Part shown: positions 107-64,000 of the stretch, piece after piece
How the letters are laid out: each line of letters begins with the position of its first letter
Position numbering within the stretch: the stretch's first letter is position 1
Assembly: GCA_030688315.1 (NCBI GenBank)
Contig: JAUYIT010000027.1
Span: forward strand, 33,135-97,134
Reading direction: 5' to 3'
DNA length: 64,000 nt
Source of the DNA: Candidatus Komeilibacteria bacterium
Lineage (GTDB): Bacteria; Patescibacteriota; Patescibacteriia; UBA1558; UBA10009
The notes under the pieces: generated by a model
What the model saw: only the letters and a program-made list of their open reading frames with translations
The model's database searches: none
What the model was told of the DNA's origin: nothing
Position numbers and translations under genes: made by a program

Positions 107-853
107 TTAGAGCTGTGAGTCAATAATTGACTTGACGGATTCAAAAGGCAAAGCGCCTCTAACCGGAACGCCGTTAACAAAACTGCCCGGAGTACCATCC
201 ACGCCATAGCTTAAACCTTCCTGATAGTCGGCTTCCACCTTTTGCTGATACTTGCGGGAGGAAACGCATTCTTTGAATTTATTCAGATTAGCCCCGGCTT
301 CTTGGGCTAATTGTTCGTACAAAGCCGTGCCCATGGTTTGCTGATTGGCGTAAATGCCGTCGGTAAACTTCCAAAAACCGTCATTGCCTTTTTGTTCGCC
401 CACGCATTCGCTGGCTTCAGCTGCCGGACGGGCCTGCGGATGCAAGCTGTCTAAAGGAAAATGCTTGTAGATCCAGGCCACTTGGTCGCCATATTCGGAC
501 ATGACCTGCTGCATGGTGGGATGAAATCTTGAGCAGAACGGGCACTGAAAATCGGAAAATTCCACGATTTTGACTTTGGCATCTTTATCGCCCCTAAAGT
601 ATTCGTCTCCGGACAGTTCAATATTAACCGGATTTTCCGCCGAAGGAGCTGGTGCCACATTGTCATTTTCCAAAACCACGGCTTGATTATTGCCCTTAGC
701 CGAAGACGAACCCTCTTTGCCCGAAATCACGCCGGTCAATAAAATAAAGAAACCCACCGTGCATAACAGCAACACTCCGGCGACTAAGCCGAAAATAAAA
801 GTGGTTTTAGGATTAAGCCCGGCAAAGAAACTGCCCTTTTGTTCATCAAACAT
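107..853 (-). CDS. membrane-anchored DsbA-family thiol:disulfide oxidoreductase (thioredoxin fold, CPFC active site)
   Basis: 248 aa. N-terminal TM helix, FSDFQCPFC active-site motif, DsbA/BdbD-like C-terminal region with a TPxxFVNG-like cis-Pro loop. Starts ATG, ends TAA. Confidence 0.8.
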   Translation of the reverse strand: MFDEQKGSFFAGLNPKTTFIFGLVAGVLLLCTVGFFILLTGVISGKEGSSSAKGNNQAVVLENDNVAPAPSAENPVNIELSGDEYFRGDKDAKVKIVEFSDFQCPFCSRFHPTMQQVMSEYGDQVAWIYKHFPLDSLHPQARPAAEASECVGEQKGNDGFWKFTDGIYANQQTMGTALYEQLAQEAGANLNKFKECVSSRKYQQKVEADYQEGLSYGVDGTPGSFVNGVPVRGALPFESVKSIIDSQL

Positions 854-901: not shown

Positions 902-1294
902 TTAAAAAGTTTTTGGCTGAACCAAACCGCCCGAGTAAGCCAATAACAAATCATCAAAGGGCTTAAGCCGCCCCAGGCCGGTTAAGGCATTTGATAAAAG
1001 TTTGAATTTTTCAAAAAATTCCTTTTTAATAACCTCGGTTAAAGAAAAAATCCGCCTTTTTAAAACAACGGCTAAAAAGAAATAAAATATCGCGGCCAAG
1101 CCAAAAATCAGCATGCCGCGCATCACGTTTAAATGGTCCAGATTGATTCCCCCGCAAGAATTGACGCTCAAATTGGTCTGACAGCTTAAAAGCATGTAAA
1201 AATTATGCATGCCGCAATTAGCCAAAGTCAGCGGCATTATAACCACCGACACCAAAAACAGGAGAGAAATGATAAATAAAACCCTGTGATTCAT
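902..1294 (-). CDS. small 2-TM membrane protein with Cys-containing extracytoplasmic loop (possible DsbA redox partner; function unproven)
   Basis: The track ORF 902..1450 overlaps the fusA 3' end. The internal ATG at 1294 (MNHRVLFIISLLF...) avoids the overlap and sits just after a TATAAT-like box. It has two hydrophobic helices and three Cys (NCGMHNFYMLLSC...NSCGG), lies adjacent to dsbA, and carries no recognisable DsbB/VKOR signature. Confidence 0.45.
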   Translation of the reverse strand: MNHRVLFIISLLFLVSVVIMPLTLANCGMHNFYMLLSCQTNLSVNSCGGINLDHLNVMRGMLIFGLAAIFYFFLAVVLKRRIFSLTEVIKKEFFEKFKLLSNALTGLGRLKPFDDLLLAYSGGLVQPKTF

Positions 1295-13410: not shown

Positions 13411-13422
13411 CAGCGACGTATT

Positions 13423-30700: not shown

Positions 30701-33700
30701 GTTATAATCGAGTTGAACTGCACCGCGATTTTGGCATTAAGGCAGGCGTTTTGGTAAGAAGGATAGGGCGAGGGGCTTTGCGGCTGAATGGAGCACGACT
30801 GGCTGAATAAAATGCCAAAATCGCGGGGCACAATTTCCACTTGCGCCGTGCCTTGTCCGCTCTGGCCCTCATCGTTGCTGGCTTGAGCCGTAATATTAAC
30901 CGGACTTTGCGTGATTGCCTTAGCCGTCATCAAACTTTGGTTAACGCGGGATTCCGTGTCAATTTCCGCCTGATTTGGATTGGAAGAATTCCATGACCAG
31001 CTAAATGTATCCGGACAAATATTGCAGTTTTCGGCGTTATAAGGATAACCGCTATATGTTACCTCATCATTTAAATACACCGGATTGTTGTTTCTGATCA
31101 ATCGCTGATTGGGGTTTACGCTGACAGCGTTAATTTGGCAAACTTCATTATTATCTCTAGTTTTAAAAAACCAAACATACGGCTCGGCCATGGCCAAATT
31201 TTCTTGCTCGCTTCTTAAATCACCTAAGGTAACTTGATACCAAGTTGAAGGTTGCAAAGCCGAAGACAAACTTAAAACAAAATATTCACCGCTGTTGCCT
31301 TGGCCGAATTCAAATTCGCCATCAATATTTTGAACTTGGGCGCAGTTCCCGGGCGTTTCACCGTTGCCGCATGACTTAACAACCACCGTTGAACCAAGAT
31401 CAAACGATGCGTTGTTCATGTCGGTATTAAAGGTGGCGGAAATTTGAGTATTAACAAAATTATTCAAACTGTTTTTAAGCGGTGTGGGTGAAGCTAGCCC
31501 TAATTGACACGATTGGCTTTCCACCACTTCGGGCACCACGCAGTTTTCACAAGTGGTAAACTGCCATTGATAATATGAATCGGGTGATTCTTCTTCTCCG
31601 CCTGCTCCGCCGGTCACTGAAAAATCCAAACTATTGCTTTGCAACTCGTTATTAATAACTACTTTAACCGGGCCGGAGCGGGCGCCCTCGGGCACGGGCA
31701 CGTTGTTAAAATGCTGGTTCTGATTATCGGGCCGGGCGTTTAAATTCTGCTCGCCCAGTTTTAAAGTTCCACCATTAAAATACTCGCCGGCCACTTCAAA
31801 GGTGGATCCAACTTGGCCTTCGCGCGGATATAAACTGCAAATGCCCGGTGCCAGATCGGCTTCGGCCTGATAATCAAAGGACTGGTCAGTGGTATCCTGC
31901 CGGCCGTCAGCTCTTTGCACCATAATGGTGCCATCAGCCGCGCCTTCAGGGACTTTAACAATAATATGATCGTCCTGCCAAAAACTGCTATCAGCGCGGC
32001 ACTCCACCGGAAAATCAAAAGTACCTTCAACATTATCAGTAAAAATAACTTTGCTTTGACCTTCCTGATATTGGCCGAAATCGGAACCGTAAATATTAAC
32101 GTACTGGCCAACGTTGCCGTTCTTAGGTTCAAAATCAACGATGTTGGGATAATTATTTTCCGGCAAAACCGTAATGGCCAAAGCGTTGCTATCTTGTCCG
32201 TCAATCCTGACCCTAACCGAAGTTTGACCCGGATTTAAATTAGGCAAATTTGCCGAAACAAAGGCGCGACCCTCTACCGCCCGCCACACCGGACCCGCGG
32301 CAGCAAGATTTTGCTCCGCCCGGCCAAAATAAACACTCTTTTCCTGATTGGGATCGTTAATGTTGCCAAACTGATAGCCGACCAAGGTAAAATTTGCGCC
32401 GGGCGGATTCTGGTCGGGCACCAACATGCAAATACCCGGACGTTCAATGTCATTGACCGAAAAATCAACCCTGTTGCTGGTTAAATTCTGGCTGGTGATC
32501 ACGCTTAATTGAGTATTGCCTAAATCCAATTCAATCGGCAATTCCAAAATAATTTGCGTATCGGTCCAGCTGGCCTGGCAAAATCTGGGCAAGCGACCCT
32601 CAACATCGCCGATAAAAATTTGGCCGGGAGTATTGCCAAAACCGCGGCCGCTAATGGTGACCCAGTTGCCTTTGGCGCCATTATCCGGGCTAACCGCCAT
32701 AATTCTGGGCGGTTGTTGGCACAAGCAGGAATCAACATTGCAAACATTGGAAGCGCAGATTTGATTGTCAGCGTCAGTACAGCGATTCTCGATAACTTCG
32801 CCGCAAGGGTCGCCTGCGCAGGCGCCGCAAGCACCACCGCAATCTACGCCGGTTTCTTCAAAGTTTTCGTCTTGAATATTATTAAAACAGTGCGCCGGCC
32901 TGATTAACACGCTAGCCCGCCCTAAGGCGGACTCATGGCCGGCCGCGTCATAAGCGCGGGTAGTTAGTTCAAAAGCTTGGGGCTGAAGATTGTTAGTGGG
33001 CCATTCCGTCTGCGCCAAAAATTCCAGGGGCGTATCTTGGCCCGCTTCATTGGTATTTAAAAAATTGCCGGCCACAAAAAAATCAACTGAAGTAAGCCCG
33101 CCGTCATCGGTGGCTTGAGCGAATAAATTATAAACTTCATCAAGCGAAAAAATCGCCCGGCCGGTTAAATCAAAATGCTGGCCGGCGCGGTTAACTGCTT
33201 CAGTAAAATCCACCGAGGGATTTTGGGTATCCACCAAACCGCCGACCCTGAATTCCCCCACGCAACTATTGCCATTACAGGTCACGGCCAGCCCGCCCAC
33301 GCTTCTTAAGGAAACACCGGCCTCGGATAAAACCGTGACGCGGTAAAGATTTAGGTCAGCGTTGTTTTCATCATAACCAAAGCAGAACAATCGCTCATTG
33401 GGTTCCGGACAATTGGTTTGCGGCGTAAATTTAACCCGTTGCTGATTATTAGGATCAATGGTCAAAGTTCCGGCTACTCTTTCAAACCCGCCCTGGCCGT
33501 TGGCGCGTTCAACTCTAATACCTTCCTGATTTGTTAATACATTATTTTCGTCGATTAAAGCGGGATTAATAACTTGGCTAAAGCTGATTTGAGGGACAAC
33601 ATTTCTGATTCTTTGCTGGCCACGGGGCAGAATGCTGGTCACCCTAAACTGACGTTGAAGATCGGGAATGTCGGGGTCACCCGGCCCGCCTGGCCCGCCA

Positions 33701-34143: not shown

Positions 34144-35922
34144 TTACTGGCAGTTAGGACTAACCTGCCCATCATCGCACGGGCCAACGGCCGGATTCAA
34201 ACAATTTTGATACATGTCCTGGATGCCGGCGGTCAGGCGCGGATTATAAACCGTTAACGGATTCAAATAAGGCGAGTAAGTCCTGATTACAGCCGTTGTT
34301 GCCCGATCAACATTTTGCTTGTAAACATTAAAACCGCCTTCCGGATAGCAAGTTAGGTCATCAGGAAATTCCGCCCCGTCGCAGGCGAATTTATAAACGG
34401 TATAGTTATCGCTGTTAACGGTGGAAGAGCGCAACAGTTCGCTAAAGCGCGCGTTGATCCGGCTGTTTTTGGGCACAGTGTCGGAACCCTGCTCCGGAGT
34501 GATACTTCTAACGGTTGGGGGCGTTAAATCCAGTTCATCGGTGGTATTAAAAGAAGAAGTGTAATTATCGTCGGGCTGGCCTTGAGCCGCGCCGTTAGCG
34601 TTGCCGTCCAAAGAATTGCCCGCGGCATCGGTAATACCCGATAACGGATCAAGCGTTTCGTTGTTGTTGACAATGGCGGCCTTAGCCAAAATAGCCAGCA
34701 GTTCGCTGCCCGGCAAACATTTGGGCGTTACCCCGCAGGAATTTTGTTCAACCGGCTGGCCGTTAACCTCACATACGGCAACCGGAATAAATTCCACGGT
34801 TCTAAAACGGTTGCTGATCATAAACTCGCCCGCTAAATATTGAACCGCTTCCTGTTCATTTTCATAACTGATTAAAATATTATTAAACGGTTCCTGGGCA
34901 TTGCCAGTCGCCACGCCAGTGGCGCTAAGCAAATTAACGGCCTCATTAAAATTGATTTGGAAAATAGCGTTTTTAGGTACGTTTGCACCGGCGGCCGGTT
35001 CCACGCTTTCCACTTGAGGCGGGGTTAAATCCGATAAATTGGAAACCTGGAACGACCAGTTAAAACCGCCGCTAAAGAAAGCTCTGTTGCCGCCAACTTT
35101 GGCAATCTGGTCGCTTAAATTAACCGTGTAATCGCTATTACCGTCCCCCGAACCCAGTAAAGGATTGGGATTAAAAACAAAATCACGGTTATTGCGGGTT
35201 AAGGCGATTACCTGGTTGGCCGCCAAAAAAGAATTGTCCGCGCTTCTGTTAATAATCTTGACTGACGGCACAACGGAATTGTCGCGCAAAGTAAATTCTT
35301 TAAGGTTGCCGCAAATTATTTCTTGAGGCAGGCCGGCGCATTCTTGCGGACGATTTTGAGTGTTAATGATGGTGGCCGTATCCATGGCTTCCTTAAAACT
35401 GACCATCAGCAGTACGTTGCGCGGAACGTCTCTGGCGCCCGGTTCCGGATAAACGTCGCGTAAAATTCCCCCGCCCAAAGCGCCGATGTTAACGTCAAAA
35501 GACCCTCTGCCCCCGCTGGGATCTTCGCCTCCCCGAGTGGCTTCATCCAGCCGGCTGATAATAAAACGGGCAATTAAATATGAAGACATGATAATAGCCA
35601 GGCCAATGACGGCGTTGCGGATGATTTTTTTGGCGTCGGCGATTTTGTCTTCTTCGCCGCCTGAAGTCATCCATAACCAGCCGGCATAGATAATGAGGCC
35701 CGTGGCAATCACCCCCAAAAACCCGAGAAATATATTAATGACCAAGGCGATAGTATCCTTAAGTTGGCGCGTGCCCAAATTGACCGAATCAAGATCATTA
35801 ATACCAAAATCGTCAGCGCTTTGCGCCAGTGCCAAAGCCGGTAAAACAAAAACAGCCACAATAAAGATACTCATCAATAAAGTAGCTGTTTTAAAGTTTA
35901 AGTTAAAAACCCTTAAAAGCAT
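34144..35922 (-). CDS. 592-aa surface protein: N-terminal VirB2/TrbC-like pilin module + Ig-like (SbsA/Big-type) domains, Cys-rich C-terminus; paralogue of the giant protein N-terminus
   Basis: Residues 40-125 (LKDTIALVINIFLGFLGVIATGLIIYAGWLWMTSGGEEDKIADAKKIIRNAVIGLAIIMSSY) are about 85% identical to the giant protein. The remainder is beta-rich and ends CLNPAVGPCDDGQVSPNCQ. Confidence 0.8.
   Translation of the reverse strand: MLLRVFNLNFKTATLLMSIFIVAVFVLPALALAQSADDFGINDLDSVNLGTRQLKDTIALVINIFLGFLGVIATGLIIYAGWLWMTSGGEEDKIADAKKIIRNAVIGLAIIMSSYLIARFIISRLDEATRGGEDPSGGRGSFDVNIGALGGGILRDVYPEPGARDVPRNVLLMVSFKEAMDTATIINTQNRPQECAGLPQEIICGNLKEFTLRDNSVVPSVKIINRSADNSFLAANQVIALTRNNRDFVFNPNPLLGSGDGNSDYTVNLSDQIAKVGGNRAFFSGGFNWSFQVSNLSDLTPPQVESVEPAAGANVPKNAIFQINFNEAVNLLSATGVATGNAQEPFNNILISYENEQEAVQYLAGEFMISNRFRTVEFIPVAVCEVNGQPVEQNSCGVTPKCLPGSELLAILAKAAIVNNNETLDPLSGITDAAGNSLDGNANGAAQGQPDDNYTSSFNTTDELDLTPPTVRSITPEQGSDTVPKNSRINARFSELLRSSTVNSDNYTVYKFACDGAEFPDDLTCYPEGGFNVYKQNVDRATTAVIRTYSPYLNPLTVYNPRLTAGIQDMYQNCLNPAVGPCDDGQVSPNCQ
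35548..35922 (-). other. VirB2/TrbC-like pilin module of the 592-aa paralogue
   Basis: See 33712..34086. Confidence 0.6.
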
Positions 35923-53481: not shown

Positions 53482-54819
53482 TTAATTCAACAGTCCGATA
53501 ATTTCCTTAACCTCTTTAACCTTAACCAACCCGGCCGAGGCGCCTTCAAAATAAGGCAGAATAATTTTGTTAAAACCCAATTTAACCGACTCCTTAACTC
53601 TCTCTTTGGTTTTGGCAACCGACCTCACTTCTCCGGCCAAACCCACTTCGCCAAAAATCACCGTTTTAGCCGGCACCACTCTATCCTGATAAGCGGATAT
53701 AATACTGGCACACACGGCCAAATCCAAAGCCGGTTCTTTTAAAGTTAAGCCACCGGCGATATTTAAATAAATATCAAAATTACTTAAATTAATCGCCGCT
53801 CTTTTACTTAATACCGTGGCCAGCATTTCCAAACGCCTTTGATCAAAACCCGAAGCGGAACGTTTAGGATAATTATTTGAAGTTTTGGCCACCAAGGCCT
53901 GCACTTCCACCAAAAACACCTGCGAACCCTCGGCTACGGCGCAAATAACCGAGCCGGGCTGATGATGACTTTCCGCTAAAAATATTTTTGAAGGGTTAAC
54001 CACGGCTTTTAAACCCTCTTTAACCATTTCCAAAATCGCCACTTCATCGGTGGGGCCAAAACGGTTTTTGGAAGCGCGCAACAAGCGATATTGTTTGTAT
54101 TTATCGCCTTCCAAATACAGCACTGTATCCACCAAATGCTCCATGGTTTTGGGCCCGGCCAAATCTCCTTCTTTGGTTACGTGGCCGATAATAATGATGG
54201 CGGTTTTGCCGCTCTTAGCTAAAGTCAGCAACTTGGCGGTACAGGCCTTAATTTGATTTAAATTGCCGACCGCGTTGGTAATTTCTTCGGTATAAACGGT
54301 TTGAATGGAATCAATCACGGCCAGTTTTGGCTGTTCACTTTCAATGGTGGCGATAATCGTTTCCAAATGATCTTCATTTAAAAACCTTAATCCGCCTTGG
54401 CCTTTGCCTAAACGTGACAAACGACCAGATACCTGATCAGTTGATTCTTCAGCGGAAACATACAACACTCCGTCTTTAAAACTATTGACGATTTGCAAAG
54501 CCAAAGTTGATTTGCCCACGCCCGGATCGCCGCCCAGCAAAATCAAACTACCCGGAGTAATTCCGCCCCCCAGCACTTTATCAAATTCAGCAAAACCCGT
54601 AGGCAATTTTTTCGCCCGCGACCCGCTTATGGAAAGATGGGTTAATTCCACGACGTCTTTTGATGCCTTGGAACTTGGACCTTGAACCTTTTTTGTTGAT
54701 TGACTCTTGTTAGTCGTTTCTTCGGTCAGCGTTCCCCACGCCCCGCACTCCAAACACCGCCCCGCCCATTTAATGGCCTGTGCGTCACACTTGGAACAGG
54801 TAAAGATTGTGTTACTCAT
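53482..54819 (-). CDS. radA: DNA repair protein RadA/Sms
   Basis: 445 aa. C4 zinc finger CSKC...CLEC, RecA-like Walker A GGDPGVGKSTL, KNRFG motif, Lon-protease-like C-domain. Confidence 0.93.
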   Translation of the reverse strand: MSNTIFTCSKCDAQAIKWAGRCLECGAWGTLTEETTNKSQSTKKVQGPSSKASKDVVELTHLSISGSRAKKLPTGFAEFDKVLGGGITPGSLILLGGDPGVGKSTLALQIVNSFKDGVLYVSAEESTDQVSGRLSRLGKGQGGLRFLNEDHLETIIATIESEQPKLAVIDSIQTVYTEEITNAVGNLNQIKACTAKLLTLAKSGKTAIIIIGHVTKEGDLAGPKTMEHLVDTVLYLEGDKYKQYRLLRASKNRFGPTDEVAILEMVKEGLKAVVNPSKIFLAESHHQPGSVICAVAEGSQVFLVEVQALVAKTSNNYPKRSASGFDQRRLEMLATVLSKRAAINLSNFDIYLNIAGGLTLKEPALDLAVCASIISAYQDRVVPAKTVIFGEVGLAGEVRSVAKTKERVKESVKLGFNKIILPYFEGASAGLVKVKEVKEIIGLLN

Positions 54820-55147
54820 TTTCTATTTCTTGCAAAATTACAGCTAAATGATACTCAAGATCCTTCTGGTTGATATTTTCCGTATTACCCTTAAAATAAA
54901 TAGTGATGGGAATCAAGGTATTCCTGAATTCCCAAAGAAAAACAATAACCCGAAATGACTTGCTCTTGCCCCTAGGTAAATCTGAACTTTTCAGACGCAG
55001 TTTATATAACTTATGACCCAAGGGTGTAACTAAATCTTTATTAAAATCCTTTAACTGCTTAATTAAATCATCAGTTAAGCCCGGGTATTTCTTTAAAAGA
55101 GATTTTAGTTGTCTTAAAAAATGAACTGCTAAATAAATCTCATACAT
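54812..55147 (-). CDS. RelE/ParE-superfamily toxin-like protein (type II TA toxin)
   Basis: 111 aa, basic. Its start overlaps the radA stop region and it sits 2 nt downstream of an RHH protein gene. The pattern KLYKLRLKSSDLPRGKSKSFRVIVF..IYFKG is consistent with the RelE/HigB fold. Confidence 0.5.
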   Translation of the reverse strand: MYEIYLAVHFLRQLKSLLKKYPGLTDDLIKQLKDFNKDLVTPLGHKLYKLRLKSSDLPRGKSKSFRVIVFLWEFRNTLIPITIYFKGNTENINQKDLEYHLAVILQEIENE

Positions 55148-55151
55148 AAAC

Positions 55152-55415
55152 TTACAAGTCCGCTAATTTAGATAGTTGCTTTTTAATGGAAGGAATGTTC
55201 CTCTTTTTATATTTCTTTTCCAAGGCGCTCTCCAGAGCTCCACTTAGATAAGCGAATCGAGGGTTGCCTTCCAAAGGCATCTTACCTTCTTCATCAATGT
55301 ATTTTATTACGGCAAAACGAAAAAATTCCGCCTTACTCGGAAAGCCCTTAACTTTTATCGTCTGGCTGATCTTTTGCTCTAAGACCCGGGGAATGGAGAA
55401 ATTAATTATAGGCAT
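55152..55415 (-). CDS. ribbon-helix-helix (CopG/RHH) antitoxin-like protein
   Basis: 87 aa. N-terminal beta-strand IINFSIPRVLEQKI followed by two helices. Encoded immediately upstream of the toxin-like gene. Confidence 0.5.
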   Translation of the reverse strand: MPIINFSIPRVLEQKISQTIKVKGFPSKAEFFRFAVIKYIDEEGKMPLEGNPRFAYLSGALESALEKKYKKRNIPSIKKQLSKLADL

Positions 55416-55426
55416 AAGTATATTGA

Positions 55427-55906
55427 TTACATATTTAATACATATATAATATCAAATTGCCAAAAACTTGTCAAATGACCACTTAACAGGTACTTGTTAA
55501 ACATTCTGGTGCGTTTAGTAGCTAGCTCAGGATCCTCAATTTCTTTAACCCTCTCATAACCTACTTTAGCCAGCCAACGTTTGAATGGCTCAGCTTTAGG
55601 GGATGGGATTGATTGGATTATGCGAAAAATACCTTCTGTGTTAGCGCAGTCGGTTTCGTACTTTTTACCGTCAGAGGACTCTAATTTCAGTTGTTTACAA
55701 ATTGTAGACAACTGAACTCCATCCTCATCTTTGACCCGGGCTTTCATTGCGCTCCAATAAACACTGGGCTTAGCGCTATCCGTCAGCACTTCTACCACAT
55801 CCACAACCGAAAACCACCATTCGTTGTTGTGAATAACTTTACGGACTTCTTTGCCTTTAAAAACAACGATTTTAATTGTTTCTGGGTGATTATTTGATTC
55901 CTGCAT
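55427..55906 (-). CDS. Bro-N domain protein (phage/mobile-element-associated DNA-binding domain)
   Basis: IKIVVFKGKEVRKVIHNNEWWFSVVDVVEVLTDSAKPSVYW matches the Bro-N/AntA N-terminal pattern. The track start at 55957 is a TTG; the ATG at 55906 is preferred. Confidence 0.6.
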   Translation of the reverse strand: MQESNNHPETIKIVVFKGKEVRKVIHNNEWWFSVVDVVEVLTDSAKPSVYWSAMKARVKDEDGVQLSTICKQLKLESSDGKKYETDCANTEGIFRIIQSIPSPKAEPFKRWLAKVGYERVKEIEDPELATKRTRMFNKYLLSGHLTSFWQFDIIYVLNM

Positions 55907-56154
55907 ATGTTTTATATTATTACTTATTAGCTTAAAAAGCAAACAAAACAGGGTCAAAAACCATTAGCCCCAAAGAGGCGGTAATTGACCCTGTTTTAAT
56001 TATTGTTATCTTAATTGAACCTCAAAAATCTGTCAAGTTGATAAGGTGGCGGCTGTTTTAAGCAACCAAAAAATCCTTTACCCCCGAAGCTCAAAGAGCG
56101 GAGGGGGCAACTGCCTAAAAACGATTGAGGGTTAAAATAATTTTGATTTACTCT

Positions 56155-56826
56155 TTACTGATCTCGGCAAGAAGCAGTACTAATATGATAGTGGTTACTA
56201 TTCTCCAATGCATGATAGCCTACATATCTTGCACACTGACTGATAGCTCTTTCAAAATATTGAAAATTTTCTTCATCACCAAAATCAACCGCGTATGACT
56301 TACCATCATTGACATCTCCTCCGTAATGGCATGAGTTCCAAAGATGGTCGCAATTTGCCGGCTTGTTGTTCTGAACATGACAGGCGCCCAAATTACCAAT
56401 ATAATCGGAATCGCTGATTGAGGAAATTCTGCCAATTACTACCGGCGGACTCCCTTCACGGCTAAGTTGTCTTTCAAATTCATTAAATTTTGGCCTTAAA
56501 CAATTTAAAAGATTTATTAATCCCTGGGAAGCATCAGATAGTTGCGCCTGAATACCGTCATCAAAGTGCCAACCGCCCGTAACACCCGCCTCATCAGCTC
56601 CTCCAAAATTTCTCTCCATACATGTTTTAGGCCCAATTGGAGGGTTAGCTACATAACAAATTTTATTACCCGGCAACCAGGTTACATTGTTGTTTGGGTT
56701 AGGAGAAGGACAAATACCTGATTTGCTAAAATTACCCATAACATCTTTGGTACAGATCATATCTTTAAATTTTGAACCTATATCTCCTGTAAAGGAGCTT
56801 AAGGCCAATCCCCCGACTTTCGCCAC
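56155..56826 (-). CDS. Cys-rich protein with possible LAS-type (M15/M23-like) zinc peptidoglycan-hydrolase motifs; in frame with the upstream 327-aa ORF across a single TAA
   Basis: 223 aa with 12 Cys. H-x6-D in CHYGGDVND and HxH in NHYHIS. GTG start at 56826 (first ATG at 56760). No signal peptide of its own. A strong hairpin terminator (aacagggtcaa...ttgaccctgtt) lies 3' of it. Confidence 0.4.
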   Translation of the reverse strand: MAKVGGLALSSFTGDIGSKFKDMICTKDVMGNFSKSGICPSPNPNNNVTWLPGNKICYVANPPIGPKTCMERNFGGADEAGVTGGWHFDDGIQAQLSDASQGLINLLNCLRPKFNEFERQLSREGSPPVVIGRISSISDSDYIGNLGACHVQNNKPANCDHLWNSCHYGGDVNDGKSYAVDFGDEENFQYFERAISQCARYVGYHALENSNHYHISTASCRDQ

Positions 56827-56931: not shown

Positions 56932-57915
56932 TTACTTACGATTCGTCTCTTGAAAAGTTGGCGTGAAGAGATTGCAACCATTTTCGTTTTTAGGTATGCC
57001 GTACTTGTCCATAGTAGTATTATCAACCTGATCACACTTCAAGCAATTTGCTTCTCCTAAACGTTGGTTAAAATAACAAACCGCGCCATCTAGATATTCC
57101 GAGCAACCCCTGCCTATACATTCTTGGTTTGTACCCTTAACCTTGGCTTTTTGACCGCAACTAAGATTTTGTCCAATATCATCCTTACCGTCAACTGTAA
57201 CAGCTGCATCGGGTTCACAAAAATCTCCCACCTGCGACTTATTAATTTTACTGACGTCCAGCGGCGAAAATTCAACCAATTTAGGGTTAATCGTATTCAA
57301 AATAAGCCACGAGCCAAGGACTAAAATTAAACCGATGATGGCGCCGATGATAATTTCCTTGGCTTTCGTGATTTTTCCAGAATCGCCGCTGGAAAAAAGC
57401 CATAACAATCCGCCAATAGCGATCATAATAACCGCCACAATACCGGCCACGCCCACTAAAAATTTGTATAAAGCACTAATATAATTTCCAAGCAAACTAT
57501 TATCAACGTTACTGGTTTTAGGAAAACCTGGTAATGAAATATTAGGAGTAAACTTCAAATCCTCCCTAGGAATGGCTCTTTCTCCAACTGCCGAAGGTGC
57601 TGGGCATAAGTCAGAATTATAACAATAATCTAAAGAGCATGTTACACCGCCAACTAATCCTGTTTGACTAGGATCAAGATTAGGATTAGCTATAACCACG
57701 CCTTGACTTTCACATGTTGCTTGTGTTATATACCTGGTACAAGATCTTACTTCTCTATCATCTCCAGCTGACCTATTTATTTCTCTACAAATACAACACT
57801 TACCGCTATCTTCGGATGGACCGATGAAACCCTGGGCTAAAGCATTTTGCGGAACAACAATAAAACCAAGACCTAAAAGGTAAAATGATAATAATACTAT
57901 TTTAACTGATTTCAT
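56932..57915 (-). CDS. secreted Cys-rich protein with internal VirB2/TrbC-like pilin hairpin module (third copy)
   Basis: 327 aa. Signal peptide, Cys-rich N-domain (CCICREINRS...), then LYKFLVGVAGIVAVIMIAIGGLLWLFSSGDSGKITKAKEIIIGAIIGLILVLGSWLIL (two TM plus a basic loop, compare GGEEDKIADAKK in the giant protein), then a Cys-rich C-domain. Confidence 0.7.
   Translation of the reverse strand: MKSVKIVLLSFYLLGLGFIVVPQNALAQGFIGPSEDSGKCCICREINRSAGDDREVRSCTRYITQATCESQGVVIANPNLDPSQTGLVGGVTCSLDYCYNSDLCPAPSAVGERAIPREDLKFTPNISLPGFPKTSNVDNSLLGNYISALYKFLVGVAGIVAVIMIAIGGLLWLFSSGDSGKITKAKEIIIGAIIGLILVLGSWLILNTINPKLVEFSPLDVSKINKSQVGDFCEPDAAVTVDGKDDIGQNLSCGQKAKVKGTNQECIGRGCSEYLDGAVCYFNQRLGEANCLKCDQVDNTTMDKYGIPKNENGCNLFTPTFQETNRK
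57277..57498 (-). other. VirB2/TrbC-like pilin hairpin module inside the 327-aa protein
   Basis: See 33712..34086. Shared G(L)LW(L/M)xSGG(E/D)xxKIxxAKxxIxxAxIGL signature. Confidence 0.55.
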
Positions 57916-57934: not shown

Positions 57935-58615
57935 TTACTTTAGCGCCTTTTCCAACTGCTCTAGCGTTATTTCCTGATTAAACCTCTGGTTATTAACAAA
58001 CAAATAAGGCGTGCCGTCTAAACGGAGGCCCTGGCCTTCCTGAAAATCTTCCATAATTAAAGGCAGAGTTTGCTGATTATCATAACACTGGCTGAATTTA
58101 GCCAGATCCAATTTTAAAGCCGAGGCGACTTGGGTATATAAATTTGAACCCAACTGGTCCTGATTGGCGTAAAGGTAATCATGGAATTCCCAGAATTTAT
58201 TTTGAACTTGGGCGCAACGGGCGGCAATGGCCGCGCGCTGGCTTTGCTGATAATCGGGATTGGGATAATCTTTCCAAATCAATAACACATCGGCGGGATG
58301 ATTTTGTAACAGTTGGCCCAAAACTTGTTCCGCGTCCGCGCAATGCGGACACTGAAAATCGCTATAAATAACCAGCTGGTTTTTGGCGGTTGTTTGGCCT
58401 AAAGCCGGGTCGGTGGCTCTTAACACCGGCGCGGTTAACAAGGGTTGAGTTACTTGCTGACTGACATTATTTAACGACTCCAAATATTCTTGATCATCTT
58501 TTAAAACTTTGGCGCCATAATAGTAACGAGTTACAATCAAAATCGTAAAAACAAGCAACAGCCCCAAGGCGAGGTAAACTAAGCGGTTGACTTGTTTGGG
58601 GTTAAGGTCAGACAT
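57935..58615 (-). CDS. membrane-anchored DsbA-family thiol:disulfide oxidoreductase (second copy, inside the T4SS-like operon)
   Basis: 226 aa. TM anchor, active site FQCPHC, DsbA-like C-terminal cis-Pro region (DGTPYLFVNNQ). Confidence 0.8.
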   Translation of the reverse strand: MSDLNPKQVNRLVYLALGLLLVFTILIVTRYYYGAKVLKDDQEYLESLNNVSQQVTQPLLTAPVLRATDPALGQTTAKNQLVIYSDFQCPHCADAEQVLGQLLQNHPADVLLIWKDYPNPDYQQSQRAAIAARCAQVQNKFWEFHDYLYANQDQLGSNLYTQVASALKLDLAKFSQCYDNQQTLPLIMEDFQEGQGLRLDGTPYLFVNNQRFNQEITLEQLEKALK

Positions 58616-58617: not shown

Positions 58618-59865
58618 TTACAATTTAATGCTGTAAACCTTCCCGTTATTGGCATCTTGGAAAAACAGGGTTTTTTCATCCGGCGATAAGGAAACATTGC
58701 TAGCGGAATAAGCATTTAAATCGCCCACCGGAGTAGCTAACACCGAAATCTGGCCGGTTTGCAAATCCACTTTGTAAAAAGCATCGGCGGAATTTTTGGC
58801 CAATTGCGGATACAAACCGCTGCCGCTGGGCAAATAATCGGGCACCCCACAATAAGCAGTAATGCCATCGGCGGCCAGAGCGCATTTTTCCGGCCAGGTG
58901 GCTAAGCCCAAATCCAAATTGCCCGCGCCCGCGTTATCGCCGCCGGCCTGGACCGATTGCAGGATTGGTTTAAAATCATTATCGGTGCGGTAAACACTGT
59001 ACAATAGACGATCGCCTTTAGCCGACCATTTGCCTTTAAAGCCGTGACCGTTAACCGTAAGCGATTGAAAATTTTCCTGATTGCGACCGATAAAAATGAC
59101 TTCTTGAGCGTTGTTGCCCGTGTTTTTGCGGTACATAGCCACCATTTGCCCGTTGGGGGACCAGTTGATATCCACATCGGCGGACTTGGCGCCCAACCGT
59201 TCCACAAACTGAATATTGGAACCGTCGGGGTTGGCCGTAACGATCCAGTTATTTTCTTCCTGTGGACCGATAGCCGCGGCCGCCAATTGTCCGGCATCAG
59301 TGGAAAAAGAGAATTTTTCCAGTTCTTTAGGCAAAGCGTATTGCTGTTTTTTAACAAAATCATAAACGATATTGGAACCGTCGGGATATTCCAGCACGGC
59401 GCTGTTGCCTTTAGGCGCCCAGGTAATGTTTTGCACGGCGTAAAAACGCTGATCTGTCAGCTGGCTAACGGATCCGTCCGCGTTGATTTTGTAAAAACGG
59501 CCTTCGGCGGAATTAAAATAATTAACTCCCCCGTTTTGATTGACTGTAGGCGCAACCACGCGCGACGAACTAAAATTGTTAACCAAAGTATAGCTGCCAT
59601 TGGCGGTTTCGGAAACTGTCACGTCTTCCGGGATCTGACTGATAAAAGGCAATCCGGCGTTGACGTTTAAACCACCGACGCGATTAACATTACCTTCCGG
59701 CAATTCCGGCAATTGGCCGGCCGGAGTATTAACGTTAATCAAATTGCCCGGAGGCAAAGCCGCTTGCGGCGGTTTAAAGAAAAAATAATACATTAAATAG
59801 CCAAGACCAATCACCGCGCCCGCGAACAGAATGATGATGATTGTTTTTTTTATTCGTTCATTCAT
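58618..59865 (-). CDS. TM-anchored beta-propeller protein (TolB/PD40-like repeats)
   Basis: 415 aa. N-terminal TM helix, then repeated SP(D/N)G..(I/V)AF-type blades (NWSPNGQMVAMY, SLSPDEKTLFF, TANPDGSNIQF). Confidence 0.6.
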   Translation of the reverse strand: MNERIKKTIIIILFAGAVIGLGYLMYYFFFKPPQAALPPGNLINVNTPAGQLPELPEGNVNRVGGLNVNAGLPFISQIPEDVTVSETANGSYTLVNNFSSSRVVAPTVNQNGGVNYFNSAEGRFYKINADGSVSQLTDQRFYAVQNITWAPKGNSAVLEYPDGSNIVYDFVKKQQYALPKELEKFSFSTDAGQLAAAAIGPQEENNWIVTANPDGSNIQFVERLGAKSADVDINWSPNGQMVAMYRKNTGNNAQEVIFIGRNQENFQSLTVNGHGFKGKWSAKGDRLLYSVYRTDNDFKPILQSVQAGGDNAGAGNLDLGLATWPEKCALAADGITAYCGVPDYLPSGSGLYPQLAKNSADAFYKVDLQTGQISVLATPVGDLNAYSASNVSLSPDEKTLFFQDANNGKVYSIKL

Positions 59866-59879: not shown

Positions 59880-60698
59880 TTATTTACCCAAAAATTTTAC
59901 TTTGCCTAATTCCGCCTCCATTTCATCGGCCGCTGACTTTAAACTGCCGATATGCTTATCGTTTTTAATCTTAATCAACAGAACCATAAAAATATAAGTC
60001 GGAAACATAGTAACGAACGGAAGAAACTCCACTAAAATCGCCAAAATGGCCTTACCAGCGAATTTTTTTATTAACCATGTTTTAAACCAAACTCCCTGAA
60101 AGCTGACGACCATTAAAAGGGCCATGGTAATAAAAATATTAACAATTGAACTGCTGATGCCTGTCGGCTCCAGCATATCCCAAAAATCCTTGATAAACGC
60201 CAACAGTATGGCTAGTAAAAAAGAACTGAATCTGCCGGAAGCAATTCCCTGCCTTAAACTTTGACCCAATAAAAATCCTTCTTTGATGGCACCAAGCGGG
60301 GTTTTAATGCTGGCCGCGTTTTTAAAACGCTCGTAATCATGCTTAAACTGTTTATCGCCTAATTCGTTTAAAGATCGGCTTTCCACGATGTTTTGGGCCT
60401 GATTAATAAAACTTTTCGCCCTTTGCCGGTTTGATGGTTGATTGTTTGAGGATTGAGCGGATTGATCTTGAGGCGTTGGTTGATTTTCCTCCTGATCCTG
60501 TTGATTATTGTCAGTCGGTTGGTTAGGAGTCGGCCCCGCTTGAGCGGGCAACGGACTTTGATTCGTCCCTTGTCCGGCAGGTAAAGAAGAAGATTGTTTT
60601 TTATGTCTGCCGCTCTGCCGGTCCTTTTTTTTGACAACGGTCAACAATCTGGCCAACTCTTGTTCTACCCCCTGGTCTAATTTACGGGCATCAGCCAT
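59880..60698 (-). CDS. hypothetical polytopic membrane protein with Q/N/P-rich disordered N-terminus (T4SS-like operon member)
   Basis: 272 aa. Residues ~35-100 are low complexity, and 3-4 TM helices lie in the C-terminal half. Confidence 0.5.
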   Translation of the reverse strand: MADARKLDQGVEQELARLLTVVKKKDRQSGRHKKQSSSLPAGQGTNQSPLPAQAGPTPNQPTDNNQQDQEENQPTPQDQSAQSSNNQPSNRQRAKSFINQAQNIVESRSLNELGDKQFKHDYERFKNAASIKTPLGAIKEGFLLGQSLRQGIASGRFSSFLLAILLAFIKDFWDMLEPTGISSSIVNIFITMALLMVVSFQGVWFKTWLIKKFAGKAILAILVEFLPFVTMFPTYIFMVLLIKIKNDKHIGSLKSAADEMEAELGKVKFLGK

Positions 60699-60716: not shown

Positions 60717-61292
60717 TTATTCCTGCCAAACGGCGCTATCCACCAACCAGCTGTCGTCGGATTTGACCAATGATAATTCAAGGTCCTGATAATAAACAAA
60801 ATCCTCGGCGCCGTCCTTGCGTTCGCTTCGTTGCAAACTGACCGTAACTTGGGCCGTGCCGGCCCCTTCATCCAAATTAGTGATTTCCGTTTTTAAGGCC
60901 TTGGAAGAAACGCCGTAAAATGTTTGACCGGATGCTGACGTTAACATTTCCGCCTTCAACTGATTGATGTCTAATTGCATGTTGGCGGTAGCCATTAGTT
61001 TGACTTCTTCCAGATTTAAAAACTGGCTGTCGGTAGAAAAACTGGCGTAGCGTTCGGCAAAATTACGGGCCGTGTTGACCGCGGTTTGTTCAGCCGGCTT
61101 AAGAGTAACAATCGACACAATTGGCACCGCGCCTTTGTTGACTTCGGGTACGGCCGTATTAACGTTCTGGTTGGTTTTTGCCTCTGGCTGATTAGGAGTA
61201 AAAAACGACTGATCGGTCAGCAACAAAGCAATGGCCAGCCCGGCCAGAACTAAGACGATAATGGCGATGATGATTATTTTTTTTCTGTTCAT
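60717..61292 (-). CDS. N-terminally TM-anchored extracytoplasmic protein (size and topology compatible with a VirB8-like scaffold; unproven)
   Basis: 191 aa. One TM (IIIIAIIVLVLAGLAIALLL) then a soluble domain. Confidence 0.4.
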   Translation of the reverse strand: MNRKKIIIIAIIVLVLAGLAIALLLTDQSFFTPNQPEAKTNQNVNTAVPEVNKGAVPIVSIVTLKPAEQTAVNTARNFAERYASFSTDSQFLNLEEVKLMATANMQLDINQLKAEMLTSASGQTFYGVSSKALKTEITNLDEGAGTAQVTVSLQRSERKDGAEDFVYYQDLELSLVKSDDSWLVDSAVWQE

Positions 61293-61302: not shown

Positions 61303-63153
61303 TTATTGCTGGCCGCTCATGGCCGTATCAAATTCCTTTTTAGCCGCTTCAATTTCCAACAGCTGTTTGGGATCGGAAGTAATAATCTGGTCTTCGGTGT
61401 AACTGGCTTTGACTAAAATAGCCACGTGCTTATCGCCCGCGAAAAAGATGCCTTCGCCCACGTTGCCTTCCAACAGTAAATACTTTTCGCCCTCCGTAAG
61501 CATAAAGGTATCCTTAATCATATTAATGCCGGCCGGCGACTGCTTTAACAACAGCTGGAGCGACGAGTTGGTCACGATGGCCTTGCCATAAGGCGAACTC
61601 AAAAAATCCGTCACATCTTGGGTAATGGTGGTTACGCCCAAATAATACTTGCGGCAGCGCTTGACCAAGGCGAAAATGAATTTGGCGCTATCTTCCCTTT
61701 GCATCAGCCACCAGGCCTCATCAATCACTAAAATTCTCTTTTTTAGCTCGCTGCGCACAATTGTCCAGATGTAATTAACAATAGAGTAAATAGCAATGGG
61801 CTTAAGCTCGTCTTCCAAATCGCGCACCGAAAAACAGATCATTTGATTTTTAACGTCAATGTTGGTGGGGCTGTTAAACAAACCGGCAAAAGTTCCGGTG
61901 GTATATTTTTTTAAGCGCATCACCAAAGATTCGCCGCCGGCCATGCCGCCCAGCACTTCTTCAAAATCCCTCATCAGCGGGGCTTCCACGTTGCTTAAAT
62001 CGCTTTCGGGCGTAATATCCTTTTTTGCGTAAGTTTCCAGCAAGGCCCGGTCCACCAAAGAGTCCTCTTCATGGGAAAGCTCCCCGAGCATTAAGCGCAC
62101 CAAACCCTTTAAAGTAATAACCGCGCTGCGGATAATATCGGCCGGTTTACTATCTTCACCGATGCCCTTGGGCAAATCAAACGGATTGAGCTTGGTTTCG
62201 GAATTAAGGGAAATATTGATGTACGCTCCGCCCACCGCGTCGGCCAGATATTTGTATTCGTTTTCCGGATCAATAATCATCACTTCAATACCCATCATCA
62301 TACTGCGTAAAACCTCCAGCTTAATGGCGTAGCTTTTGCCCGCGCCGGAAGTGGCAAATACTACCGAGTTGGGGTTTTGCAAACTAAAACGGTCAAAAAT
62401 TATCAAACTGTTATTGTGGCGGTTAATGCCGTATAAAATGCCGTCATTACCCGTTAGTTCGGAAGAAATAAAAGGGAACGAAGAAGCCACGGGCGAAGAA
62501 TTCATGTTAAACGAAATCTGCAATTCATCATTAGCCAAGGGCAAACAGGAATTAAAGGCCTGCTCCGACTGGTACAAAGCGCGTTTGGAATAAACAAGTT
62601 TGGAGCCAAACAAGGATTCGATTTTTTCCACCATCAATTCCAGTTTTTCTTTGGTATCGGCGTAAATGGTAACATACAAAGCGAACTGAAAAAACTTTTC
62701 CGTGCCCTGAGTTAAATCGTCGCGCAAAGTTTCAATATCCCTTAAGGCCGTTTCACGCAACGGGTCGCGAGGCGCGCCTTTTTCGGCGTCGGCCATCAGC
62801 TGGGCCTGCACCGCGCCGACCTTGTTCTTAAGTTGTTTTAAAATAATTTCCGTTTTAACTGGGTAAAAAAACATGGCCACATCCAAGGGCGAGCTGTAAT
62901 TGATAATGGGCGAAAACCAGCCCACGTTGATGTAACGCGGATAGTTAATGGCAAACAAAGTGGTTAAAAATTTGCCGTTAAGCTCTACCGACCGCGGATC
63001 CACTTTCATGCTGGCCGGGGCGATAATATCCTTAACCGAAGTTACGCCCTCGCGGTAAATTTTTTCCGCCTCCAACAACTCCCGGGCTTCGGTTGAACTA
63101 ACCTTGGCCTGGCTCTTTTTTATTTCTTGTTCCGGTTTTATTTTAAATGCCAT
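61303..63153 (-). CDS. VirB4/TrbE/CagE-family type IV secretion ATPase
   Basis: 616 aa. Walker A FATSGAGKSYAIK, Walker B RILVIDEAWWLM, N-terminal NYPRY(I)NVGWF motif typical of Gram-positive-type VirB4 (PrgJ/TraE/TcpF-like). Confidence 0.88.
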   Translation of the reverse strand: MAFKIKPEQEIKKSQAKVSSTEARELLEAEKIYREGVTSVKDIIAPASMKVDPRSVELNGKFLTTLFAINYPRYINVGWFSPIINYSSPLDVAMFFYPVKTEIILKQLKNKVGAVQAQLMADAEKGAPRDPLRETALRDIETLRDDLTQGTEKFFQFALYVTIYADTKEKLELMVEKIESLFGSKLVYSKRALYQSEQAFNSCLPLANDELQISFNMNSSPVASSFPFISSELTGNDGILYGINRHNNSLIIFDRFSLQNPNSVVFATSGAGKSYAIKLEVLRSMMMGIEVMIIDPENEYKYLADAVGGAYINISLNSETKLNPFDLPKGIGEDSKPADIIRSAVITLKGLVRLMLGELSHEEDSLVDRALLETYAKKDITPESDLSNVEAPLMRDFEEVLGGMAGGESLVMRLKKYTTGTFAGLFNSPTNIDVKNQMICFSVRDLEDELKPIAIYSIVNYIWTIVRSELKKRILVIDEAWWLMQREDSAKFIFALVKRCRKYYLGVTTITQDVTDFLSSPYGKAIVTNSSLQLLLKQSPAGINMIKDTFMLTEGEKYLLLEGNVGEGIFFAGDKHVAILVKASYTEDQIITSDPKQLLEIEAAKKEFDTAMSGQQ

Positions 63154-63162: not shown

Positions 63163-63843
63163 TTATTCAACTCTTAATTTATTTATATCCGCCAGTTTTT
63201 GCGCGTCCGCCACTTCGGGATTATAGGTATTGTAAAACAATTCAATCAAACTCTGCGTATCCAAGGGCACCGATTTTAGGCCAATGGACGAAAGGCCGGA
63301 AATCACAAAATCCACCCTTTTCATTAATTCATCGCGGGAACGGTTAAATTTTTTCTGACTCAAGTTAATGGCCCGAGCCGGCGAAATTGCGTCCATGGTC
63401 CGCTCCCAAAACTTCTTTTTTTCATGGTTGGCGCCGCTGTAAGGCACGGCCACGTAAAACTTTTTGGTCATAATTTCGCCCAAATCCAGCAGGTCGCGCA
63501 AAAAGGCGCGGTAATCGGCAATCTGCAAACGCAACAATTCATTGGTCTGTTCTTTTTCCAAATTTTCCAGCTTGGTTAAATAGCCGTCAATATTAAGATT
63601 GCGGGATTGAATCACGATTTGCAAAGGGAATGATAAAGAATTTAAAAAACTGACGTACGCTTGAATAATAGCGTTTTGCTCGTCTTCGCCTTTAAGCGCG
63701 AAGTTAATGGAAGAAACCAGCAGAACCGCGCGCGTGCCGCCATCGCGCAACACCACCGTGTCGTCTTTGATTTCGGCAATGTCCAAATATCGTTGCGTTG
63801 ATTGGCTTGGTTTTGAACCGGCTAATTTGTTTTTTTCAGGCAT
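63163..63843 (-). CDS. VirB4 N-terminal-domain-like protein, in frame with the VirB4 ATPase across a single TAA
   Basis: The segment VLRDGGTRAVLLVSSINFALKGEDEQNAIIQAYVSFLNSLSFPLQIVIQSRN resembles the VirB4/TraC N-terminal region. The track start at 63906 is a TTG and would overlap the upstream gene; the ATG at 63843 (preceded by TATAAT) is preferred. Confidence 0.5.
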   Translation of the reverse strand: MPEKNKLAGSKPSQSTQRYLDIAEIKDDTVVLRDGGTRAVLLVSSINFALKGEDEQNAIIQAYVSFLNSLSFPLQIVIQSRNLNIDGYLTKLENLEKEQTNELLRLQIADYRAFLRDLLDLGEIMTKKFYVAVPYSGANHEKKKFWERTMDAISPARAINLSQKKFNRSRDELMKRVDFVISGLSSIGLKSVPLDTQSLIELFYNTYNPEVADAQKLADINKLRVE

Positions 63844-63844
63844 A

Positions 63845-64000
63845 TTATAATTTAAATGAAACGTCTTTTTCCCGTTCTTCGCCGTGATAAACCCCGCCGG
63901 TATCAATCAACAGGGTCAGCTCGGCCAAATGGGAACGGTTAATGGGACGATGGGTTATGGGAGCAACTGTTGCCGGAGCACCCTGATCGGCATTATCTTT
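63845..64000 (-). CDS. 3' end of an upstream minus-strand gene running off the window (unknown product)
   Basis: The frame is open from the window edge (KDNADQGAPATVAPITHRPINRSHLAELTLLIDTGGVYHGEEREKDVSFKL*) with a TAA at 63845-63847, one nt before the ATG of the next gene. Confidence 0.35.
   Translation of the reverse strand, partial: KDNADQGAPATVAPITHRPINRSHLAELTLLIDTGGVYHGEEREKDVSFKL

Follow-up and report, generated by a model that had tools for sequence, protein, structure and literature searches.

Two DsbA-family proteins of a Candidatus Komeilibacteria bacterium: one in a conserved type IV secretion-like operon, one beside a candidate membrane redox partner

Two genes for DsbA-family thiol:disulfide oxidoreductases lie on the minus strand of a 64,000-nucleotide stretch of contig JAUYIT010000027.1 (positions 33,135 to 97,134; hereafter the window) from a Candidatus Komeilibacteria bacterium of the Candidate Phyla Radiation (CPR). 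The first, DsbA2, is encoded within an operon resembling a type IV secretion system (T4SS), between the genes for a propeller-like protein and a cysteine-rich pilin fusion. The second, DsbA1, is encoded at the left edge of the window; it follows the gene for a 130-aa membrane protein and, on a contig reaching past that edge, precedes the gene for a protein with four transmembrane segments (4-TM) and an invariant CxxC. With a probability that we put at about 60%, these genes represent two separate extracytoplasmic thiol-disulfide modules, one formed by DsbA2 and the T4SS-like machine and the other by DsbA1 and the 4-TM protein. Coordinates are collected in Table 1, and loci on other contigs are given L numbers.

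Two membrane-anchored members of the DsbA family

Both genes encode genuine membrane-anchored DsbA-family proteins, far beyond chance. The DsbA2 protein matches, at 100% identity, an NCBI entry (P0001) under the name Candidatus Komeilibacteria. Against Pfam, DsbA2 matches Thioredoxin_4 (E=6.4e-29) and DSBA (E=2.5e-16), both well over the gathering scores, and DsbA1 matches the same profiles at 1.4e-29 and 1.7e-18; the bit scores are 101.7 for DsbA2 and 103.8 for DsbA1, against a cut-off of 23.2. The two proteins share 29% identity. Their nearest sequence relatives in the PDB are P. aeruginosa DsbA2, C. diphtheriae DsbA/TsdA, ScsC and BdbD, the best matches of DsbA1 being C. diphtheriae DsbA (4pwp, 9.5e-13) and ScsC (6nen, 4.7e-11). 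DsbA2 carries a single N-terminal transmembrane (TM) segment at residues ~8-33. Across 29 of its orthologues (alignment A2), the first active-site Cys, the pair C134/C177 and the T202-P203 loop are invariant; C134/C177 is probably a structural second Cys pair, common to DsbA1.

An AlphaFold2 (AF2) model of DsbA2, built from the 29 orthologues, has a predicted local distance difference test (pLDDT) score of 93.7. In it, a long N-terminal helix leads into a thioredoxin fold that carries five inserted helices (residues 125-196) between strand 110-116 and strand 204-207; helix 90-105 begins directly after C89. When compared by Foldseek, the model matches solely DsbA-type structures (E 1e-10 to 1e-7, top TMt 0.6-0.84), namely 3gyk, Wolbachia alpha-DsbA1/2, BdbD, ScsC, MdbA, TsdA, BcfH and SaDsbA. 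DsbA2 thus has the features by which the family is recognised: a CxxC at the N-terminus of the first helix, the helical insertion, and a Thr-Pro sequence in the place of the cis-Pro loop.

The original prediction, made from the letters alone, had described the two CP(F/H)C proteins as membrane-anchored and thioredoxin-like. The Pfam profiles, PDB sequence matches and helical insertion bear this out and place both in the DsbA type. A CcmG/ResA/TlpA-type reductase, raised at the time as the case that would speak against the idea, was considered and rejected: neither DsbA matches Redoxin, AhpC-TSA or Thioredoxin_8, the DsbA helical domain is present, and there are no Ccm/Res neighbours in the window, among whose polytopic membrane proteins CcdA, ResB and CcsA were not found. 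The accompanying premise that small-genome bacteria often lack Dsb systems is wrong for the CPR, where an MdbA-like family of thiol-disulfide oxidoreductases is enriched (Meheust et al. 2019, PMC6744442). In that survey CxxC is conserved in 89% of the MdbA-like CPR members, VKOR is adjacent in 88/750 genomes, and a role in pilin folding is proposed. Hence the presence of DsbA in the CPR is already known and not new.

DsbA2 within the T4SS-like operon

The operon around DsbA2 runs on the minus strand in the order TraC-like protein, VirB4, 191-aa protein, 272-aa protein, 415-aa propeller-like protein, DsbA2, 327-aa T4SS_pilin fusion and 223-aa open reading frame (ORF), and is tightly packed, with spacers of 2-19 nt. 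PrgI/VirB3 lies just past the right edge of the window, as seen on the Logan contig L001, where PrgI and the TraC-like gene stand upstream. With VirB4, a TrsD/TraC-like protein, PrgI/VirB3 and VirB2-like pilins, this operon corresponds to the Patescibacterial T4SS of the monoderm, MPF-FATA-like (mating pair formation) type, which has no outer-membrane core (Quinonero-Coronel et al. 2025, PMC12102498). Promoter and terminator scans gave nothing over background that would alter the operon picture.

The place of DsbA2 was predicted to be between the propeller gene and the Cys-rich pilin-module gene, and this is exactly where it lies, 2 nt after the former and 19 nt before the latter. The succession VirB4...propeller-DsbA is found in 12 distinct CPR loci, at identities between 79% and ~30% and with a spacing of 2-20 nt (window/L001, L002/L007, L004/L010, L008, L009, L011, L012, L013, L014, L171, L172 and L173). 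These loci include Komeili-, Kerfeld- and Uhrbacteria, and radA is mostly the next gene. In L027 and L038 the DsbA-pilin pair alone is retained. The genome scan for DsbA2 relatives used an 11-sequence alignment, and its best match among GTDB representatives was 62%; DsbA homologues from Acidobacteriota, Myxococcota, Cyanobacteria and other non-CPR groups have no T4SS neighbours. A rough neighbour-joining (NJ) tree groups the propeller-linked DsbAs in a single clade. As conserved synteny, the description of DsbA2 as "dedicated" to the operon therefore stands, and as part of the two-module explanation we regard the gene, at the probability given above, as a fixed accessory of a chromosomal monoderm-type T4SS-like operon in a subgroup of the CPR, Komeili-, Kerfeld- and Uhrbacteria among them.

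The cysteines of the proteins encoded on either side of DsbA2 hint at its substrates. The propeller is its most conserved neighbour, and has exactly two Cys, invariant in 10/10 aligned orthologues within the motif KC-x10-12-YC[AG]VP. The gene after DsbA2 usually encodes a signal peptide followed by a VirB2-module protein with 12-30 Cys (3-5% Cys). Complete pilin fusions in this position have 16, 30, 12, 18, 12, 20, 26, 26 and 22 Cys, all even numbers. In the window, the 327-aa protein is composed of a signal peptide, a Cys-rich N-domain, a VirB2-like T4SS_pilin module with two TM segments and a Cys-rich C-domain, and judged by its sequence is a likely substrate of DsbA2. Pairing DsbA2 with the pilin fusion, as had been suggested, is right insofar as such a fusion is the usual neighbour, although the most conserved partner is the two-Cys propeller.

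The 223-aa ORF, which has a GTG start, corresponds by homology to the C-terminal part of a 585-aa pilin fusion in relatives. Whereas L002/L007 encode one 585-aa protein, the 327-aa and 223-aa genes of the window are set apart by a stop and ~105 nt, and the same split is found on the independent Logan contig L001. HxxxD and HxH motifs are visible in the 223-aa ORF by eye only, and it has no Pfam or PDB match. The corresponding C-terminal portion is a Peptidase_M15 in L004 and L171. An assignment of the ORF itself to the M15 peptidases was rejected on account of the missing Pfam and PDB matches and of the lack of significant similarity to the Peptidase_M15-containing fusion of L004.

The window holds three pilin-module fusion proteins in all, two of them far from the virB4 operon. 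The latter, the giant 3123-aa protein and the 592-aa protein, start with a VirB2-like T4SS_pilin module that is followed by Big_5 (in the giant also by CBM), and are candidate disulfide-bonded surface proteins by their sequence. The four Cys-rich proteins of the window had been named as the obvious Dsb substrates. This is plausible given their even Cys counts (84, 10, 16 and 10) and the VirB2-like modules of three of them; the 223-aa product, having no signal peptide in the window genome, does not suggest itself as a substrate in its own right.

Several further observations concern the operon and its relatives. The contigs of L009 and L012 are labelled 'uncultured Gammaproteobacteria bacterium', but show the CPR-type order propeller-DsbA-pilin(-RadA), and are probably binning or labelling errors. 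The propeller gene is intact in L007:8740-9989 (JGI copy) and split into two overlapping ORFs in L002:8739-9989 (GTDB/NCBI copy of the same organism), a likely assembly frameshift. Between the T4SS-like operon and radA, window positions 54812-55957 encode a RelE-like toxin (E=3e-4), a small upstream ORF and a Bro-N protein (E=4.7e-17); since radA directly follows the operon in relatives, this segment looks like a small mobile insertion. Elsewhere in the window, ComEC occurs as two adjacent ORFs (12526-14847, minus strand), a Competence/DUF4131 membrane part of 474 aa and a metallo-beta-lactamase protein of 294 aa.

Table 1. Features of the window and of the CxxS-bearing relatives of DsbA2
Feature	Coordinates	Strand	Description
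DsbA2	57935..58615	-	226 aa; membrane-anchored DsbA-family thiol:disulfide oxidoreductase (Pfam, AF2, Foldseek)
DsbA2 CPHC	58351..58340	-	residues 89-92
DsbA2 Thr-Pro loop	58012..58007	-	T202-P203
DsbA1	107..853	-	248 aa; one TM segment; membrane-anchored DsbA family
DsbA1 CPFC	544..533	-	residues 104-107; GTP at the Thr-Pro loop position
130-aa small membrane protein	902..1294	-	two hydrophobic segments with three Cys between
TraC-like/TrsD-like protein	63163..63906	-	T4SS-like operon
VirB4 ATPase	61303..63153	-	Pfam P-loop_TraG 3.9e-28
191-aa protein	60717..61292	-	single TM segment; T4SS-like operon
272-aa protein	59880..60698	-	three TM segments; T4SS-like operon
415-aa propeller-like protein	58618..59865	-	membrane-anchored; weak PD40/TolB matches
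327-aa protein	56932..57915	-	16 Cys; Pfam T4SS_pilin E=5e-11
223-aa ORF	56155..56826	-	10 Cys; tblastn to L002 11911-12504, 55% identity
Giant 3123-aa protein	24715-34086	-	84 Cys; T4SS_pilin 1.6e-07, Big_5 1e-28, CBM_4_9
592-aa protein	34144-35922	-	10 Cys; T4SS_pilin 7e-08, Big_5 7e-23
CxxS DsbA orthologues	L171:4393-5070, L172:7001-7726, L027:2322-3161, L038:9944-10678		proteins P0008, P0025, P0026

DsbA1 and its membrane-protein neighbours

DsbA1 clusters, in the rough NJ tree, with the DsbA genes that precede a 4-TM CxxC family, and by sequence is a member of a second DsbA lineage, which spans the CPR and in which CPFC hardly varies. In the window genome the 4-TM gene begins 83 nt past the left window edge and is the next gene after DsbA1. 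This is seen on a 1.6-kb Logan contig that is 100% identical to the window across DsbA1 and the 3' end of the 130-aa gene. The full-length product (P0135) has 181 aa.

A metagenome scan for the 4-TM family gave 80 loci, 72 of which have enough upstream sequence to be counted. DsbA lies immediately upstream of the 4-TM gene, on the same strand, in 61 of these 72 loci (39/47 dereplicated clusters), and the gaps are mostly 0-13 nt. The family is confined to the CPR. GxGCASCGS is invariant and falls at a helix break inside TM3; P147, G150, E152 and F153 are invariant in the outer loop, and a C-terminal cytoplasmic-side Cys, C178, is present in ~90% of members. The positive-inside rule, together with members that are fused to an exported Cys-rich domain, indicates that both termini lie inside (N-in/C-in). 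No match to the family was found in Pfam, NCBIfam, the PDB or Foldseek.

The slot next to DsbA is taken by recognised redox proteins in other CPR. In an Andersenbacteria locus (L034:9574-9990) VKOR is directly upstream of DsbA, and in L005 the cluster has both a canonical DsbB (L005:13033-13599, CKLCWFQR), 4 kb downstream of DsbA1, and, in the position downstream of DsbA1, an HMA-DsbD_2-cupredoxin fusion. In L118, which belongs to the window lineage, the order is fusA, small membrane protein, DsbA1, a 10-Cys protein, the 4-TM gene and a Cu-ATPase. A DoxX/MauE-like protein (L173:11759-12181) lies 4 kb from a T4SS-linked DsbA. The exported Cys-rich domain (GSCCSPMNWHRY...PCCCKCWRW...DGCGG) is fused to the 4-TM protein via a fifth TM segment in L128:5001-6152, L134, L136 and L165, and is a separate next gene in L089:6537-7184; its only matches are weak (DUF5714 E=0.011, MbdU E=0.013).

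The 130-aa protein on the other side of DsbA1 is a real gene of a narrow, lineage-specific family linked to DsbA1. It is composed of a signal/TM1 segment, an outer loop in which a Cys pair and a His are conserved, TM2, and a conserved C-terminal KPFDxLxxAYxxGxxQPKxF tail. A word-indexed search found three relatives of 93, 78 and 59% identity, and an exhaustive hidden Markov model (HMM) search found 12 members among 1.8 billion representative proteins. In these 12, C27, a second Cys ~20 residues on and His54 are conserved and the third Cys is variable. The gene is kept between fusA and DsbA1 in L005, L094 and L118; possible distant look-alikes stand upstream of DsbA in L087 and L147. Pfam, NCBIfam and PDB profile searches with the protein were empty.

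It had been suggested that this protein could re-oxidise DsbA1. The description that went with the suggestion, two TM segments and three loop cysteines with no DsbB/VKOR motif, is accurate, and the conserved adjacency to DsbA1, the outward Cys pair with its His and the possible look-alikes are what one could cite for a minimal substitute of DsbB or VKOR. The re-oxidant role itself is highly improbable. The protein has two rather than four TM segments, no CxxC, an unconserved third Cys and nothing like a quinone or other acceptor site, and it was rejected as DsbB (PF02600) or VKOR (PF07884) by the same tools that recognised the true DsbB of L005 and VKOR of L034. Furthermore, 12 representatives contrast with a DsbA1 type that is CPR-wide, and other partners are at hand: DsbB in relatives (the DsbB of a relative was not found by tblastn in the 64-kb window) and the 4-TM CxxC protein. 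Because of its invariant CxxC and its almost constant place directly after DsbA in the CPR, the 4-TM protein is the better candidate, and on sequence grounds is the likely membrane redox partner of DsbA1; the 130-aa protein would instead be a lineage-specific accessory or substrate.

Interpretation and comparison with known systems

In the two-module interpretation, DsbA2 would be a membrane-tethered enzyme of the MdbA/BdbD type, with its catalytic domain facing outward. Its most likely task is to introduce, and possibly also to rearrange, disulfide bonds in surface proteins associated with the T4SS while these emerge from the Sec translocon; judged by gene order and Cys patterns, its likely targets are the two Cys of the propeller and the many Cys of the VirB2-pilin fusions. 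DsbA1 would work with the 4-TM GCASCGS protein as its membrane redox partner. The BlaI/BlaR1-like-regulated copper islands around this pair in other CPR suggest that it could protect or repair thiols of the envelope when copper or oxidative stress arises, in addition to general oxidative folding.

CPHC is the motif of the strongly oxidising E. coli DsbA, and since it is the classical oxidising motif, we favour an oxidase for the window copy. However, the CxxC dipeptide of the DsbA2 clade varies (PH, PY, AA, SY, PT, PS), in contrast to the almost uniform CPFC of the DsbA1-type lineage, and T4SS-linked orthologues with CxxS (CPYS, CGYS, CPFS, CSYS), in unchanged operon positions, retain both the first active-site Cys and the second Cys pair. 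CPYS occurs in L171 and L172, and CGYS/CPFS in L027/L038 directly before 26-Cys pilin fusions. A CxxS protein is unable to cycle as a classical oxidase, and the clade, with only its first active-site Cys invariant, may act as an isomerase, a holdase or a mixed-disulfide partner. A threonine before the cis-proline, moreover, is a feature of DsbC and DsbG, and DsbA2 has a threonine there. Accordingly, DsbA2 may be imagined to serve the T4SS-like machine as an isomerase, a chaperone or an assembly factor, forming mixed disulfides through its N-terminal active-site Cys with the propeller or the pilin fusions, much like TrbB, for which isomerase and chaperone functions in the F T4SS have been described (PMC11315126). 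The CPHC of the window copy speaks against such a role, as does the fact that neither a DsbC-like dimerisation domain in DsbA2 nor a DsbD-like reductant in the operon was detected; we hold the role to be possible though on the unlikely side. Considerably less probable is a general housekeeping DsbA whose place in the operon is incidental. MdbA-like proteins are indeed general oxidases in Actinobacteria and enriched across the CPR (PMC6744442), and the genes that follow DsbA2 in L172 and L173, a prepilin peptidase and TIM, are unrelated; nevertheless, adjacency to the propeller is held in all 12 loci over the whole range of identity, the T4SS-linked DsbAs cluster as their own clade, and the same genomes hold a second DsbA paralogue (window; L005/L007).

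For DsbA1 the principal alternative is a reductive or protective path of the ScsC/ScsB kind, possibly extending to DsbA2, in which the 4-TM protein would move electrons out of the cytoplasm and so hold DsbA1 in its reduced state, and DsbA1 would repair copper-induced non-native disulfides or bind Cu(I). The DsbA-4TM pair is often found in copper-homeostasis islands with a Cu-ATPase, CsoR, multicopper oxidase, Csp, YHS and DUF3105, as well as a BlaI/CopY-family (Penicillinase_R) repressor and a BlaR1-like M56 protease whose tail bears cysteines. DsbA1 has ScsC structures among its best PDB matches, the L005 fusion downstream of DsbA1 includes DsbD_2, and the 4-TM protein combines a cytoplasmic-side Cys with an intramembrane CxxC, as in CcdA-type relays. 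Yet in the window DsbA1 follows fusA and the small membrane protein with no regulator pair, DsbB is also part of the L005 cluster, the actinobacterial oxidising DsbA and MdbA score equal to ScsC, and the 4-TM protein has no sequence similarity to CcdA or DsbD. We consider this path rather unlikely. Other points also weigh against the two-module interpretation. The copper islands, together with the CxxS orthologues, allow for isomerase or reductive roles; the 4-TM protein could instead be a metal transporter of the copper islands, and has no detectable similarity to DsbB, VKOR, MauE or CcdA in profile and fold comparison. It might be an oxidant (an analogue of DsbB, VKOR or MauE) or a reductant (an analogue of CcdA or ScsB, which would suit the copper context). 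Its link to DsbA1 in the window genome comes from the 1.6-kb contig, and a DsbB, VKOR or MauE elsewhere in the genome is possible, the DsbB tblastn having covered the 64-kb window. On the side of the substrates, DsbA2 is not followed by a pilin fusion in L172 and L173, the protein downstream of DsbA2 in L009 has only 3 Cys, and the 223-aa ORF lacks a signal peptide.

It should also be noted that the BlaR1-like Peptidase_M56 protein is encoded upstream of the DsbA-4TM pair in L089:4170-5156 and 16 further loci, at position -2 from the 4-TM gene. These proteins end in an extracytoplasmic tail with 2-4 Cys and are often preceded by a Penicillinase_R repressor. The M56/BlaI-type pair may be a thiol- or copper-sensing regulator.

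Beyond the two-module interpretation, we tentatively propose a bolder form of it. The 4-TM GCASCGS protein would be a new membrane redox partner of DsbA, either the fourth class after DsbB, VKOR and MauE or a minimal analogue of CcdA, and the DsbA2 clade, CxxS members included, would act as an assembly factor specialised in the Cys-stapled propeller and VirB2 fusions. According to a recent preprint (10.64898/2026.03.05.709764), MauE substitutes for DsbB, a fifth of species lack any known substitute, and further pathways remain. If the 4-TM protein is such a partner, respiration-less, quinone-poor ultra-small bacteria could run extracytoplasmic disulfide chemistry, and the family bears on the question of DsbA re-oxidation in organisms without a respiratory chain. 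If DsbA2 is an assembly factor, it would serve the Cys-stapled surface proteins that epibionts need for host contact; and should the reductive path hold, the DsbA1 module would be a compact envelope defence against copper. For the epibiotic growth of Southlakia epibionticum the Patescibacterial T4SS is reported to be essential (cited in PMC12102498 and PMC12857230). Little is understood of the non-canonical components of this system, and a DsbA with a two-Cys propeller and Cys-rich VirB2 fusions offers a concrete, testable assembly pathway, along with a list of proteins that are likely surface-exposed and disulfide-stabilised. Our literature search brought up no paper that connects the Patescibacterial T4SS with DsbA or thioredoxin; PMC12102498 and a 2025 T4SS review do not mention DsbA, thioredoxin or disulfides, and no entry for the adjacent families was found in the supplement of Meheust et al. 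Hence the T4SS-embedded DsbA clade beside a two-Cys propeller, its CxxS variants and the DsbA-adjacent 4-TM CxxC family appear to be undescribed in the literature searched.

The closest parallels to the window DsbAs are MdbA of Actinomyces oris and Corynebacterium diphtheriae and BdbD of Bacillus subtilis, membrane-anchored monoderm oxidases needed for pilus or pseudopilus assembly. Shared with them are the N-terminal anchor, the DsbA fold with its helical insertion, the CxxC and the Thr-cisPro loop, and their structures (3eu3, 4z7x, 5c00) are among the matches. MdbA and BdbD serve pilin-type substrates in a monoderm envelope, a role that the window DsbAs may share. Unlike them, DsbA2 is encoded in a T4SS-like operon next to a propeller, belongs to a clade with a variable dipeptide and CxxS members, and has no adjoining VKOR or BdbC.

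TrbB of F-like T4SS and DsbC-like proteins, as well as BcfH of the Salmonella bcf fimbrial operon, provide the precedent for a thioredoxin-fold protein encoded in the operon whose components it acts on (PMC11315126), and BcfH (7jve) is among the structural matches of DsbA2. TrbB, however, is a soluble periplasmic protein of diderm systems, whereas the CPR system is chromosomal, monoderm and MPF-FATA-like. The TrbB equivalog models (TIGR02738/NF010288) gave no match to DsbA2, and matched DsbA1 at E=0.009 with 15.7 bits against a cut-off of 132.

ScsC/ScsB and the CcdA relays combine a DsbA-like protein with a membrane thiol protein in copper stress, as the CPR pair would, and ScsC structures match both window DsbAs. 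In contrast to ScsB, DsbD and CcdA, the CPR partner is a 4-TM protein of ~180 aa without similarity to them, and a trimerisation stalk is not demonstrated. Finally, the 4-TM CxxC protein resembles DsbB, VKOR and MauE in being a small polytopic membrane protein with essential-looking Cys, encoded next to DsbA. It differs from all three in having one CxxC inside TM3, no loop Cys pair and no match in sequence or fold. A quinone acceptor is doubtful for it, because CPR generally have no respiratory chain (PMC12857230).

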